Shown here in pieces: positions 38,726 to 42,300 of a DNA stretch of 64,000 nucleotides; positions within the stretch are counted from its first letter, which is position 1, and the number at the start of each line of letters is the position of its first letter. Position numbers and translations under genes: made by a program. The notes below the pieces were generated by a model. That model was not told where the DNA came from and did not search any database. It saw only the letters and a list, made by a program, of their open reading frames with translations. The DNA is from Escherichia phage PhiR41_1: sequence record PV340561. One strand, 5' to 3'.

Positions 38726-39100
38726 CTACTTATACCCTAATTCTTTACAGCTTTCTTCAAAAACCTCTTTAGGTAGGATATTTAGATCTACAATAGTGTT
38801 GCTGTTCTTGGTTAACACGTCATTGTAAGGAATTTGTACCCATCTGTAACCTGTATACCCACCATATGAGTTAGTCGCATTTAGTTTGAAACAATATGTA
38901 TTGCTACCTTCAACGTGATCTGGGAATTTGTATTTAGCTGCATCCGGGGCCAGTAATTGTTTTTCTATAATATTTTTAATGTAATCTTGCTGAACGGGCG
39001 TTAAAGGTTTGGCTACTGTATTTCCTATATAGAATGCCAAGAGTGCCATAGAAAAAAATTGAATTTTTTTAGACTTCATCTTTTTAACCGTCTTTGACAA
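38726..39100 (-). CDS. putative secreted protein
   Basis: 124 aa; N-terminal basic then hydrophobic signal-like segment; AT-rich. Confidence 0.5.
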   Translation of the reverse strand: MSKTVKKMKSKKIQFFSMALLAFYIGNTVAKPLTPVQQDYIKNIIEKQLLAPDAAKYKFPDHVEGSNTYCFKLNATNSYGGYTGYRWVQIPYNDVLTKNSNTIVDLNILPKEVFEESCKELGYK

Positions 39101-39107
39101 TGAGAGT

Positions 39108-39683
39108 TTATGAGCGTTTGTTGAGCAGATCTACAATCAGCTTTTGAGGTGTATTTTCCTCTTTTGTCTTAGGTAATCCATTCTGAGGTAGCGTCGATAG
39201 TCTGTTCTTATCTCCTCTAGGTAACTCAAGCCTTTTCTTGATCTGCACAATAAGTTCCCATAGACTGTCTTCGTTCTCAACCTTTATAGAGTAGCCTACG
39301 CCACAATATGAATCACTTTTTAAGCGATTGTGAATTTTGAACGTATTGAAGTTTGAGCTTAACTGAATATATCCTGGGGTAATACCATCTATACTTTCGA
39401 TCACAGGAAGTATTTCTTTTATCTGGAAAGGGAAAATGACCAATGAATAATCATCTCGTCTTTCCTCATTGTCTGGTGAAATTAAATAAATGTAGTAAGG
39501 GTTGTTTTTTGAATAAGATTCTCGTAATGCTGAACTCTTTCCGAAGTAGAAACCTTTAGCGTGAATTTTATCTTTCGTTTCTTTCCCCCGTTGTATCTGA
39601 ATGTTATTTTCGCTAAGTGTCCCATTTGATACATATGAAGCTTTATCCAATATCGTGTGAAGTTGTGTATTTGAAAGAGCCAT
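39108..39683 (-). CDS. hypothetical protein
   Basis: 191 aa; AT-rich. Confidence 0.5.
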   Translation of the reverse strand: MALSNTQLHTILDKASYVSNGTLSENNIQIQRGKETKDKIHAKGFYFGKSSALRESYSKNNPYYIYLISPDNEERRDDYSLVIFPFQIKEILPVIESIDGITPGYIQLSSNFNTFKIHNRLKSDSYCGVGYSIKVENEDSLWELIVQIKKRLELPRGDKNRLSTLPQNGLPKTKEENTPQKLIVDLLNKRS

Positions 39684-39827
39684 TAGCTATCCCTTCGACC
39701 AAACTCAGCGATGAAGCCTACAAATATCATTCAGCCAATCAAGAATTTTTTTCAGCCGGAGGTGTGCACTTCAAAAAATGTGATGAATGTCACATGCAGG
39801 TGCTCTCATACACCTGCATGTAGACTA

Positions 39828-40394
39828 TTAATCATTCAATAATCTATATTTTCTTTTGATTAAATCTTCACCTTTTTTGGTGAACACAAAACCAAATTGC
39901 GATTTTTTGTTCAGCCTAAGGACTCTGTTATCCAACGCATCGGTTGATGGAATCAATGTTTGATCATCTATCCAATTTAGTAGCGTAAGAAAGTTCAGCA
40001 GCCTCAACGTTGTTGTGCGAAGCTCTTTCGATATATTTTCAATGCTGGCAATTCGTCTTTCTTTTTTCTCAGGTAGTACAGATAATTGTTCTTGAGGTTT
40101 CGTGGATAGATAATCAATTTCGTTTGCAGCATCGAATGATATGTGTGGCGTTATTTTGCTAAAAAAGCCTTTCGCTGACTCACTTGATAATAAACCAGAC
40201 CTATTCATATCGTTTGTTATTCTGTACAGGAGTGGACTGTGTTTCATTTCAGGATAACGTTGATAAAAGTTAAGCAATTCAAAAGCAGCATTAGCGCCAA
40301 CAAGAAAATCAGAAGGATCGCTGACTTTCCAGAAAGAATGATTTTTCTTAGCGCCAGTGGTGTCAACAAATGATAATTCTTTTAACCAACTCAT
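39828..40394 (-). CDS. hypothetical protein
   Basis: Likely start at MSWLKE (track ORF extends to 40427); AT-rich. Confidence 0.45.
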   Translation of the reverse strand: MSWLKELSFVDTTGAKKNHSFWKVSDPSDFLVGANAAFELLNFYQRYPEMKHSPLLYRITNDMNRSGLLSSESAKGFFSKITPHISFDAANEIDYLSTKPQEQLSVLPEKKERRIASIENISKELRTTTLRLLNFLTLLNWIDDQTLIPSTDALDNRVLRLNKKSQFGFVFTKKGEDLIKRKYRLLND

Positions 40395-40459
40395 GATGTG
40401 CTCCTTTCTAACAAGTGAGCACATCATAGAATTAGTAGATAGGGGGTAAATATGAAATG

Positions 40460-40738
40460 TTACGGCAACCTGCTCAGTATTTCCTCTAGATCTTTTTTTG
40501 TCATATTGGAGTTTTCATAGATGCGCATGATTTTCTCACGCGTCTTAGCGGAAACCCCAACGGCAGATGTGACTTTGTCAAATTCAGCCATAGTCATCGT
40601 CTCCAGAATGGCATTGATAACTTCAGCCTTAGACATCTTGATTTTTTTCTCTTTGAGTTTTATTTGGAATTTTCCAAGTTTTTCATTGGCCTTATCAGAC
40701 AATGCCACTTGGCAATAAGTTGTTTTCTTTTCGCTCAT
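40460..40738 (-). CDS. hypothetical small protein
   Basis: 92 aa, Lys-rich; starts 2 nt after the helicase stop. Confidence 0.45.
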   Translation of the reverse strand: MSEKKTTYCQVALSDKANEKLGKFQIKLKEKKIKMSKAEVINAILETMTMAEFDKVTSAVGVSAKTREKIMRIYENSNMTKKDLEEILSRLP

Positions 40739-40740
40739 AA

Positions 40741-42300
40741 CTAATCTCGTTTCAGAACTCCAAAATCGAATGCGCCATCAATAGGCAATACACCTTCCGC
40801 AAAGCCAGGTGTGGTGTCGATGATGTGTTTTCGCTCATAAGAGTGAGACAACAGGTATTTGTTGCTAATGTCAATGAAATCAGTGATAAAACACACGTTT
40901 GCCTGATTCTTCTTGGCTCGTAAGCCACGACCGACACGCTGCCTCATTTCAACTTCTGCTTTCCCACCACCAGCCAGAATGACCGCACCAACGCTTGGCA
41001 CATCAACACCGACATCCAGAATAGTCGAGCCTATTAAAACATCTATTTCGCCAGACGCTAAACTGTTCAGCTTTGCTTGCCTTGTCGCCTGGTTCGATTC
41101 CCCATAGATGAAGTCAACTCTAAGGCCGGACTCTTTCATCATTTCCATCAGGATTTGCCCGTGGCGTTTAAGACGAACCAGAGTCATACAATTGAGAGAA
41201 TGTTGCTTATAGAGCAATGCTTCGCGAACAATGGCCTCATTACGTCCCAAATTATACACGATCCCCAACTGATAAGCCTTTTGGTAGGCGGTGCTCATAC
41301 CAACTCTAAAATTGAGGTGTTTGTTGGCAAGTTCGGCCTTGATTCTGGCCTCGTCTGGCTTGTAGGCAACTTTATGATAAAGGAAGTACGGCTTTGCCAG
41401 AATGCCTCGATCAATCAGATACTTTTCTGTGACTTTAATTTCAATTCGCCCGGCCACCGCCATCAGGCGCATGTTGGCTTCCGTCGAATCCTTCATGAAC
41501 GGCGTGGCTGTAAGCGCCAGACGATAGTCTGCGTTCACACATAATCTGGCGATGTCATAGAAATTTGAGCCTGAAGACTCATGCGCCTCTTCCAGAATAA
41601 GAAGAGAGACACTTGAAAGGAAGCGTTTCACCAACTCCCGACGTTTGAGGTGGTAGCTTTTCTTATCTGGTGTTGCATCGCGTGGTGGTTCTTCGAGGAA
41701 ACTTGCAAGAGTTTGAACTGTAGCGACGTTGATATGTCGTGATACCTGGAACTCACCCGAGCCAATGACTCCAACCTTTTGGTCTTTTAACCACGGTTCG
41801 CCATTTTTGGCGCGGTAGTCGATGGATCTCTGGAAGTTTTCGGCCATTTGAAACATCAGAACAGAGCGGGTTGTTAAAAATAATGTCATTCGACCGATAC
41901 GTGCAGCTGCTTTGCAGGCAACGTTAGATTTCCCGCCACCAGTAGCGATCTGCGCAATCATCATTCCCTCTCGAACCAGTGTTTCCACAGTCTGATCCTG
42001 ATACGCATAATCAGGATTGTATGGGAATGGGTTAACCGCCGGATTTGGTTTACCAAGCGCCGGGGCTTTGTCTTTGCGGATATGAACACATTTGATGCCC
42101 GCCTTGTTCAAATTAGCCGCCACGGGCTTGGCAAAGCCAGCAGGGAACGAGTTTTTGCTCCAGTTGAACATTGTGCTTGTGCCCTTCCAGTCGCCAGCCT
42201 CGACTTCGTAGCTCAACATTTGCTGCACCAGTTGCTTTACCTTGTCATCTGCGCCAGAAATAAGCGCATTTACTGCGTTAGATACAATCCGAACAGTCAT
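40741..42300 (-). CDS. superfamily 2 DEAD/DEAH-type helicase
   Basis: 519 aa; motif I TGGGKS, motif II LILEEAHES, motif VI QRVGRGLR. Confidence 0.8.
   Translation of the reverse strand: MTVRIVSNAVNALISGADDKVKQLVQQMLSYEVEAGDWKGTSTMFNWSKNSFPAGFAKPVAANLNKAGIKCVHIRKDKAPALGKPNPAVNPFPYNPDYAYQDQTVETLVREGMMIAQIATGGGKSNVACKAAARIGRMTLFLTTRSVLMFQMAENFQRSIDYRAKNGEPWLKDQKVGVIGSGEFQVSRHINVATVQTLASFLEEPPRDATPDKKSYHLKRRELVKRFLSSVSLLILEEAHESSGSNFYDIARLCVNADYRLALTATPFMKDSTEANMRLMAVAGRIEIKVTEKYLIDRGILAKPYFLYHKVAYKPDEARIKAELANKHLNFRVGMSTAYQKAYQLGIVYNLGRNEAIVREALLYKQHSLNCMTLVRLKRHGQILMEMMKESGLRVDFIYGESNQATRQAKLNSLASGEIDVLIGSTILDVGVDVPSVGAVILAGGGKAEVEMRQRVGRGLRAKKNQANVCFITDFIDISNKYLLSHSYERKHIIDTTPGFAEGVLPIDGAFDFGVLKRD

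Follow-up and report, generated by a model that had tools for sequence, protein, structure and literature searches.

A helicase gene pair shared by SSU5-type phage-plasmids probably adjoins a separate, exchangeable cargo slot in Escherichia phage PhiR41_1

XPB/UvsW-like helicases encoded by phages, among them T4 UvsW and T5 D10, carry out branch migration and support recombination-dependent replication (PMC5180179). Phage-plasmids of the SSU5 type combine a conserved phage backbone with accessory genes that vary (PMC7969092). Here we describe five consecutive minus-strand open reading frames (ORFs) of Escherichia phage PhiR41_1 (PV340561), which encode a superfamily 2 (SF2) helicase and four small proteins, P2 to P5; the whole stretch analyzed, 64,000 nt, is referred to as the window, and all loci are numbered within it. 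Sequence comparison places the window among the SSU5-type phage-plasmids of Escherichia coli, near pLF82/phage Cyrano. Identity over the region is 97.5% to Escherichia phage Cyrano, which is the phage-plasmid carried by E. coli LF82, and 99.9% to the E. coli plasmid CP025888.1; over the helicase part, identity to Salmonella phage SSU5 is 80%. The segment is found in 155 of 5,426 complete E. coli genomes, and all 156 matches are plasmid-borne. A literature search found no study of the genes from the helicase to P5. An original prediction, made from the DNA sequence, had grouped the five genes as a tightly packed operon resembling helicase-containing defense or superinfection-exclusion modules. 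We find that the locus is more probably three separate things than one module: a core pair formed by the helicase and P2 genes, the end of their transcription unit at P3, and a cargo slot that holds P4 and P5. The genes, with the adjacent P6, are as follows.

40741..42300, minus strand: SF2 helicase, 519 aa, core gene
40460..40738, minus strand: P2, 92 aa, Lys-rich, helical
39828..40394, minus strand: P3, 188 aa; the ORF is extendable to 40427
39108..39683, minus strand: P4, 191 aa
38726..39079, minus strand: P5, 117-aa precursor; a TTG at 39100 extends the ORF to 124 aa
37813..38613, plus strand: P6, lipoprotein of 266 aa with the lipobox LLTGC

The ORF list agrees with the original prediction on the presence and positions of the five genes and on sizes of 519, 92, 188, and 191 aa, whereas for P5 a length of 117 aa is likelier than the 124 aa first given. 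The likeliest starts of P3 (40394, 188 aa) and P5 (39079, 117 aa) follow the RefSeq annotation of near-identical plasmids, where the P5 coding sequence is 354 nt long, and the homologues. Gaps of 2, 65, 144, and 28 nt separate the helicase, P2, P3, P4, and P5 genes in that order. The region is not the tightly packed operon that had been described, since the 144-nt gap between P3 and P4 holds a terminator-type hairpin and conserved promoter elements.

The helicase passed the Pfam cut-offs for ResIII (55.2 bits, cut-off 22.5), DEAD (54.0, cut-off 26), and Helicase_C (49.7, cut-off 23.5), and its SF2 motifs are intact: GGGKS (motif I, residue 121), LEEAH (motif II, 236), TATP (motif III, 264), and QRVGRGLR (motif VI, 454). 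These results bear out the earlier description of a 519-aa SF2 helicase with DEAH-like motifs. The protein also matched the phrog_16 family, "DNA helicase" (E = 2.4e-93), and its best sequence matches in the PDB were XPBII, Rad25, RecG, and UvsW. Judged by these homologies, it is an SF2 enzyme of the XPB/UvsW/RecG-like type that probably serves replication or recombination. T4 UvsW (PDB 2oca) and T5 D10 are likewise phage-encoded and conserved, and they share its SF2 core, including motifs I, II, III, and VI; the match to UvsW is, however, distant (E = 5.5e-8) and confined to the core, and a region of ~95 aa at the N-terminus of the PhiR41_1 protein has no domain assignment.

Orthologues of the helicase in SSU5, Cronobacter, and Klebsiella are 91 to 93% identical although synonymous sites are saturated, and the ratio of nonsynonymous to synonymous substitution rates (dN/dS), at 0.011 to 0.013, indicates very strong purifying selection. 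In PLSDB, 1,002 plasmids carry the helicase, and in 788 of these it is at least 80% identical; P2 is present in the same number, 788, and the two genes have the same host spectrum (Klebsiella, Escherichia, Enterobacter, Yersinia, Salmonella, Citrobacter, and Cronobacter). Plasmids of Yersinia pestis and pHCM2 of Salmonella Typhi CT18 are among the carriers, and copies ~42% identical are found in Acinetobacter phage-plasmids. The helicase gene is followed by a 92-aa gene, and is divergent from an operon for two ParB proteins and an ABC ATPase, in SSU5, Cronobacter, Klebsiella, Salmonella, and a second E. coli lineage. Xanthomonas phage JGB6 encodes a helicase of 45% identity whose end is overlapped by a 92-aa ORF; next to its terminase gene is a ParB-ParB-ATPase cluster in divergent orientation. 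Further homologues, in large lytic phages of Staphylococcus, Bacillus, Listeria, and Enterococcus, are labeled "DNA helicase" or "recombination helicase." The helicase and P2 genes are a core gene pair of SSU5-type phage-plasmids. Their conservation in the same order across the SSU5 supergroup, including SSU5 and pHCM2 of Salmonella, plasmids of Yersinia pestis, and elements of Klebsiella, Cronobacter, and Enterobacter, removes the helicase from the accessory module in which it had been placed; P3, P4, and P5 are not conserved as syntenic core genes in this way.

Defense systems were searched for with PADLOC-DB 2.0, which gave no full-length signature-protein match for the helicase. The strongest hit was to PbeA (79 bits, E = 6.7e-23, model positions 253 to 635 of 672); the others had E values of 4e-8 or weaker and covered the C-terminal helicase domain only. 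P2, P4, and P5 gave no hits, and P3 gave a single one at noise level (SspC, 12.7 bits, E = 0.0047). PbeABCD, Dpd, Druantia, and type IV restriction systems share the SF2 helicase core with the window protein, but their partner genes are absent at the helicase locus. A further difference from helicase-containing defense systems is that the window helicase is universal in its phage family and has homologues in lytic phages.

P2 starts 2 nt past the helicase stop codon and contains 17.4% Lys, in keeping with the Lys-rich 92-aa protein originally predicted. It matched phrog_1466 (E = 1.2e-45) and had no significant match in Pfam or the PDB; no ribbon-helix-helix family was retrieved from Pfam at E values up to 10. 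A 92-aa ORF occupies its position in SSU5, Cronobacter, Klebsiella, and Xanthomonas phage JGB6. The constant position, together with translational coupling, suggests that P2 is an accessory partner of the helicase. Kerr et al. are reported to have described in 2007 a small separate ORF, UvsW.1, that follows T4 UvsW; P2 was considered as its counterpart but has no sequence similarity to UvsW.1, which was not retrieved even at E values up to 10, and the likeness is left as a positional analogy. We propose that the helicase would act as a branch-migration or fork-remodeling enzyme in the replication or recombination of phage DNA and that P2 would be its small accessory or DNA-binding partner. The two genes are transcribed divergently from the ParB-ParB-ABC ATPase operon, which runs into the terminase genes.

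The separation of P4 and P5 from the genes upstream rests on elements predicted in the gap between P3 and P4 and past the end of P5.

39774..39821, minus strand: predicted intrinsic terminator, a hairpin (core stem 39792-39821) and T-run directly past the P3 stop codon
39779..39794, no strand assigned: palindrome TGTGA-N6-TCACA, TGTGACATTCATCACA, a predicted CRP consensus site 5' of the P4 promoter
39715..39742, minus strand: predicted sigma-70-type promoter for P4 and P5, with -35 element TTGATT (39737-39742), 16-nt spacer, and -10 element TAGGCT (39715-39720)
38675..38706, no strand assigned: hairpin CCCTCGACAA...TTGTCGAGGG between the convergent P5 and P6 genes, at the left edge of the exchangeable segment

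The hairpin past P3 has a folding energy of -27.3 kcal/mol (z = -5.9). In an alignment of four lineages, all 44 of the 44 cells that make up the 11 stem pairs were paired, and 4 of the 11 pairs had changed on both sides; the observed covariation score was reached in none of 500 shuffles, and in a control where the hairpin partner was slid by 1 to 3 columns, 16 to 46% of cells paired. The promoter elements were found by comparing lineages: a TTGAyy and a TAnnnT, 16 to 18 nt apart, are present in all eight lineages examined, remote P4 relatives included. A generic promoter scan did not report this promoter, because its -10 element matches at only three of six positions. The palindrome occurs once in exact form in the 64 kb, against 0.06 copies expected by chance, and with at most one mismatch it recurs in six of eight P4-family lineages at a fixed distance of 44 to 45 nt from the -35 element. 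The arrangement of palindrome and promoter is also kept in lineages that have a gene other than P3 upstream. Further copies, as expected of a phage operator set, were not enriched in the window (4 against 3.9 expected at two mismatches), and since the palindrome is not repeated there, a site for a host global regulator fits better. An Rfam scan of 34 to 46 kb returned nothing near thresholds. On this evidence P4 and P5 are likely to form a transcription unit separate from that of the helicase, P2, and P3, and P3 would be the lineage-restricted, fast-evolving last gene of the helicase unit, ended by the hairpin terminator.

P4, a cytoplasmic protein, belongs to a very small family that is confined to SSU5-like phage-plasmids. 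The family comprised 7 clusters in one search and 5 in an exhaustive profile search of 1.84 billion representatives, and every member found lies in this slot of SSU5-like elements. Pfam gave no hit at E values up to 10, DUF2002 included, for any of seven family members, and the family profile retrieved nothing from the PDB at E values up to 10. P5, by contrast with the cytoplasmic P4, appears from its sequence to be an exported protein with a two-cysteine mature domain. Its N-terminus, MKSKKIQFFSMALLAFYIGNTVA followed by KP after the predicted cleavage site, reads as a Sec-type signal peptide, in which a basic n-region and hydrophobic core precede an A-x-A type cleavage site, in agreement with the "secreted-like" protein of the original prediction. 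The Cronobacter and Klebsiella orthologues, 61% identical, keep the signal peptide, ending in AAFA and TALA, respectively, ahead of AKP. P5 matched phrog_2320 (E = 1.8e-24) and is 25% identical to the N-terminal part of the neighboring lipoprotein P6 (E = 3e-4); another relative is a small gene inserted among the tail genes of the lambdoid phage Fraca. Searches of P2 to P5 against Pfam, NCBIfam, PHROGs, and PADLOC retrieved only PHROG families of unknown function, and searches of PDB sequences with single sequences and family profiles gave nothing significant for P2, P3, P4, or P5.

Presence of the cargo genes varies among otherwise close relatives. PLSDB holds P4 in 77 plasmids and P5 in 80, against 1,002 with the helicase; the hosts, for P4 and P5 respectively, are Klebsiella (61 and 64), Escherichia (13 and 13), and Cronobacter (3 and 3). 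As fractions of the helicase-carrying plasmids, P3, P4, and P5 are present in ~23%, ~10%, and ~10%. Only 8 of the 155 E. coli genomes with the element hold the full P4-P5 segment. In Cyrano, 169 bp stand in place of window positions 38715-39712, which contain P4 and P5, and the flanks are 90 to 98% identical. The right breakpoint (39712/39713) falls immediately after the -10 element, and the left one falls at the hairpin common to both elements, which has folding energies of -23.4 and -24.8 kcal/mol on the two strands (z ~ -3.7) and is a probable bidirectional terminator. A simple deletion of P4 and P5 was considered for the Cyrano spacer and set aside in favor of replacement, as the 169 bp hold no remnant of either gene. 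The Cyrano slot (L001, 5161-5259, minus strand; OV696614.1, ~102351-102449) retains the same terminator, CRP-type palindrome, and promoter. An unannotated 32-aa ORF, MRQFIKTCDLRNIVDDIACDEISKKEKNKNAN, follows the promoter there, with its GGAGG ribosome-binding site within the 3' arm of a small hairpin.

Other elements carry other genes at this position. The slot of the second E. coli lineage (L010) holds a membrane zinc-ribbon protein, an SSU5-type lipoprotein, and a P4 relative, that of a Salmonella lineage (L012) a P4 relative and a 196-aa secreted protein, and that of SSU5 only a lipoprotein. A 377-aa HNH endonuclease gene lies inside a Cyrano-type 169-bp spacer in NZ_CP027369.1 (L015, 2537-3670), the CH4804 slot carries ISVsa5, and another E. 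coli plasmid has IS5; these HNH, ISVsa5, and IS5 insertions indicate that the slot is an insertion hot spot. The slot of NZ_JBRBPR010000004.1 (L016, 3260-4468) contains an ISVsa5 transposase and a 197-aa gene.

The AT-richness of the region had been taken as a sign of horizontal acquisition. The compositional observation itself stands: the G+C content is 0.387 for P2, 0.356 for P3, 0.361 for P4, and 0.345 for P5, compared with 0.459 for the window, and the helicase, at 0.476, is of ordinary composition, as first described. The P2-P5 block (0.365) lies in the lowest 0.6% of 2-kb windows, ~3 standard deviations under the mean, and is the most AT-rich 2 kb in the 64 kb. The AT-rich tract (~0.38) exceeds the supposed operon, running from ~35.2 to 41.2 kb, and takes in the plus-strand lipoprotein gene P6 (0.388), a 216-aa gene (36243-36893), and a 67-aa gene (35992-36195). 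Weaker AT-rich patches occur elsewhere in the window, at 11 to 13 kb and 17 to 18 kb. The conclusion drawn from the composition does not follow, since orthologues of P3, P4, and P5 in Cronobacter, Klebsiella, Salmonella, and the second E. coli lineage are equally AT-rich (0.32 to 0.42) and all detectable P4 relatives, even remote ones, occupy the same slot of SSU5-like elements. With AT-richness and position conserved across lineages, the data give no support to a recent import.

Protein identity to the window orthologues falls from the 91 to 93% of the helicase to 54 to 58% for P2, 42% for P3, 47 to 51% for P4, and 61% for P5; it is 63 to 65% for a FljA-like protein encoded nearby (37192-37710, minus strand) and 83 to 86% for the 216-aa protein. 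For genes other than the helicase, dN/dS is 0.08 to 0.29 where measurable, being uninformative for many pairs because synonymous sites are saturated. These are constrained, fast-evolving genes and not pseudogenes. We conclude that the region is an old resident, fast-diverging AT-rich segment of the phage-plasmid lineage, in which genes have been repeatedly lost or replaced, and not a recent foreign island.

The idea of a phage moron fared better, in part: P3, P4, and P5 are accessory genes that the element can do without. P4 and P5 vary among near-identical genomes and are missing from Cyrano, and the pair appears to have a promoter and terminator of its own, with predicted -35 and -10 elements and flanking hairpins conserved across lineages; the helicase and P2, on the other hand, are core genes, and the composition is not foreign. 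In these respects P4 and P5 resemble the exclusion morons (Cor of N15 and phi80, Llp of T5, and lambdoid morons): they are small and AT-rich, have promoter- and terminator-like elements of their own, vary in presence among close relatives, and include an exported protein beside a lipoprotein, with a P5 relative among the tail genes of a lambdoid phage. They differ from these morons in being old residents of one phage-plasmid lineage and not recent imports.

Taken as a cargo slot, the segment would be opened by the conserved weak sigma-70 promoter with its upstream CRP-consensus site and closed by the bidirectional terminator, and it would be expressed from the resident plasmid-prophage, possibly under cyclic AMP (cAMP)-CRP control. 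P5 would be exported to the periplasm while P4 stayed in the cytoplasm. From their location and protein type, envelope-directed cargo proteins (P5, P6, and the lipoproteins and secreted proteins of relatives) probably alter the surface of the lysogenic cell, which would lead to superinfection exclusion or some other form of lysogenic conversion. Our best guess for P3, P4, and P5 is an envelope or host-conversion role expressed in the lysogen. A more specific version, in which the slot is gated by cAMP-CRP and P4 plus P5, its commonest cargo, form a new exclusion, defense, or host-conversion system switched on in starved lysogens, is speculative and in our judgment rather improbable.

Several points weigh against this account of the locus. 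The helicase gene adjoins the ParB and terminase genes and lies ~25 kb from the main DNA-metabolism block (RepA, SbcCD, RuvC, and ribonucleotide reductase), a setting unlike that of UvsW and D10, and its role could instead be packaging-linked or of another kind. P2 diverges much faster than the helicase, which would be unusual for a tightly bound subunit. The promoter, terminators, and CRP site are sequence predictions, and the predicted CRP site is centered near -78.5 from the inferred start. Classical class I sites are centered at -61.5, -71.5, and -82.5, so that -78.5 would fit only if the start were a few bases further downstream. CRP possibly activates the P4-P5 promoter, and we go no further than this because -78.5 is not a textbook class I position. 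The structural model of P4, whose core is modeled as a YgaC-like alpha/beta fold, is of only moderate confidence (predicted local distance difference test score, pLDDT, of 63); P4 is 16% identical to Salmonella YgaC (DUF2002, PDB 2g7j) and has extra N- and C-terminal segments, and YgaC is without an established function, so that the likeness suggests no mechanism. Neither P5 nor P6 could be linked by sequence or fold to Cor, Llp, or other characterized exclusion proteins. For P3, finally, the hint of a KilAC domain amounts to 12 to 15 bits, compared with a cut-off of 25.3.

P3 matched phrog_13473, and its family of 36 clusters is apparently confined to Enterobacteriaceae where an organism is named; most full-length members are on contigs of ~100 to 116 kb, while some contigs are short or far larger. 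An AlphaFold2 model (pLDDT 74.9) has a helical N-terminal domain, disordered residues 87 to 113, and a small C-terminal alpha/beta domain, and fold searches with this two-domain model were uninformative, yielding no fold match. The only recurrent Pfam signal was ANT/KilAC (PF03374) in the C-terminal domain, sub-threshold in 3 of 27 members (best E value, 0.026; the located hit, in P0019 at residues 105 to 152, scored 12.4 bits). No match to PF03374 above the gathering score was found among the 27 members. The motif conserved at the C-terminus of P3 lies where an ANT/KilAC antirepressor would have it; in contrast to such antirepressors, just these 3 members match, all below the cut-off. The signal weakly suggests a regulatory or antirepressor-like role for P3, whose C-terminal domain would be KilAC-like. 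Immediately 5' of the P3 start codon (40398-40422, minus strand) is a small hairpin, GTGCTC...GAGCAC, with a 3' arm that overlaps the AGGAG ribosome-binding site; translation of P3 may be controlled in this way. The gap between P2 and P3 also contains a promoter-like site, TTTACC, 16 nt, TATGAT (40423-40450).

In an alternative reading, P2, P3, and the FljA-like protein would make up a regulatory or immunity region, with P2 as a small DNA-binding protein, P3 as an antirepressor-like DNA binder, the divergence of the region reflecting heteroimmunity, and P4 and P5 still being cargo. Identity falls to 54-65% over P2-P5 and the FljA-like gene, against 83 to 98% for flanking genes, the N-terminus of P2 can be read as a ribbon-helix-helix-like strand-helix-helix pattern, P3 has the sub-threshold ANT/KilAC signal, and the FljA-like gene matches Flag1_repress (E = 1.3e-68) and a PHROG "transcriptional repressor" family. 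Neither P2 nor P3, however, yielded a significant hit to a DNA-binding domain. P3 is missing from SSU5 and from most members of the group (it was found in 178 of ~790 plasmids in PLSDB), which would be odd for an essential immunity gene, and there is no repeated operator motif, the palindrome occurring only once. We regard this alternative as possible, if unlikely.

A second alternative concerns P4 and P5 alone, as a functional pair that constitutes a novel abortive-infection, toxin-antitoxin, or exclusion system. Their genes are 28 nt apart and have a common promoter and terminator, and their distributions in PLSDB nearly coincide. P4-family genes are found without P5, though, beside other genes, at five loci (L010, L012, L017, L019, and L020), direct neutralization is unlikely between an exported P5 and a cytoplasmic P4, and neither protein had a PADLOC hit. 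We therefore doubt that the two form such a system. It is no easier to accept P3, P4, or both as counter-defense proteins directed at host immunity, their fast evolution being the product of an arms race: the CRP-type promoter would favor expression from the resident element over expression early in infection, neither protein is similar to any characterized inhibitor, though no anti-defense library was searched, and we hold this idea, too, to be distinctly doubtful. That all five genes make up one helicase-based anti-phage defense or superinfection-exclusion module, horizontally acquired as a moron, is very unlikely, despite the weak PADLOC hits of the helicase to PbeA (79 bits), type IV restriction enzymes, DpdF, and DruE, the AT-rich and unannotated downstream genes, and a Klebsiella SSU5-like plasmid reported to cut phage plating and plasmid uptake, for which the authors credit restriction-modification (PMC8969562), because the hits span the generic helicase core only and no partner matches, the helicase and P2 are family-wide while P3, P4, and P5 are not, a terminator and a promoter divide P3 from P4, the helicase homologues of lytic phages are annotated as DNA or recombination helicases, and a DefenseFinder survey of 1,227 SSU5-group contigs found other systems, none of them at this locus (10.1101/2025.09.12.675607).

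Clinical Escherichia, Klebsiella, Salmonella Typhi, Shigella, and Yersinia pestis commonly carry SSU5-type phage-plasmids, whose genes are for the most part unannotated; those described here already stand in hundreds of database records as "hypothetical proteins." Splitting the core helicase and P2 from the variable cargo avoids mislabeling a replication or recombination helicase as a defense gene. The small, delimited slot with its conserved control elements is where close relatives differ, and it is a natural place to seek traits that affect the host cell surface, competition between elements, and phage resistance. Nothing in these results departs from the known carriage of accessory genes by temperate phages.

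Among the neighboring genes, P6 matched phrog_20234 and phrog_2320 and is annotated in Cyrano as a putative membrane lipoprotein. SSU5, Cronobacter, and Klebsiella lack it at this position, and it appears to belong to the same variable AT-rich cargo region, its N-terminal part being related to P5. The gene at 37192-37710 on the minus strand encodes a full-length homologue of FljA, the Salmonella phase-1 flagellin repressor. Its position is conserved across the phage-plasmid family, with only 63 to 77% identity between lineages, and in several relatives it directly follows the P4-family gene. In Escherichia albertii plasmids of 62 to 64 kb (L023, NZ_CP034165.1, 38000-52000), the region is ~99% identical; they keep only helicase residues 384 to 519, and P3 is split in two. 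These plasmids appear to be reduced and probably defective derivatives of the phage-plasmid.

Divergent from the helicase, the plus strand at 42365-47642 encodes two proteins with ParB_N domains, an ABC-type ATPase, proteins of 296, 88, and 210 aa, and the large terminase (46386-47642). In comparisons with three other elements (L003, L006, and L012), synonymous divergence (dS) is 0.26 to 0.7 for the ABC ATPase and 296-aa genes (42365-45280), whereas in the same element pairs it is saturated (>3) for the helicase and the genes to its left (36243-42300); the two sides of the divergent promoter thus appear to differ in recombination history. Xanthomonas phage JGB6 also has a ParB-ParB-ATPase cluster between its helicase and terminase genes, and this shared layout suggests a conserved module, possibly one linked to packaging.

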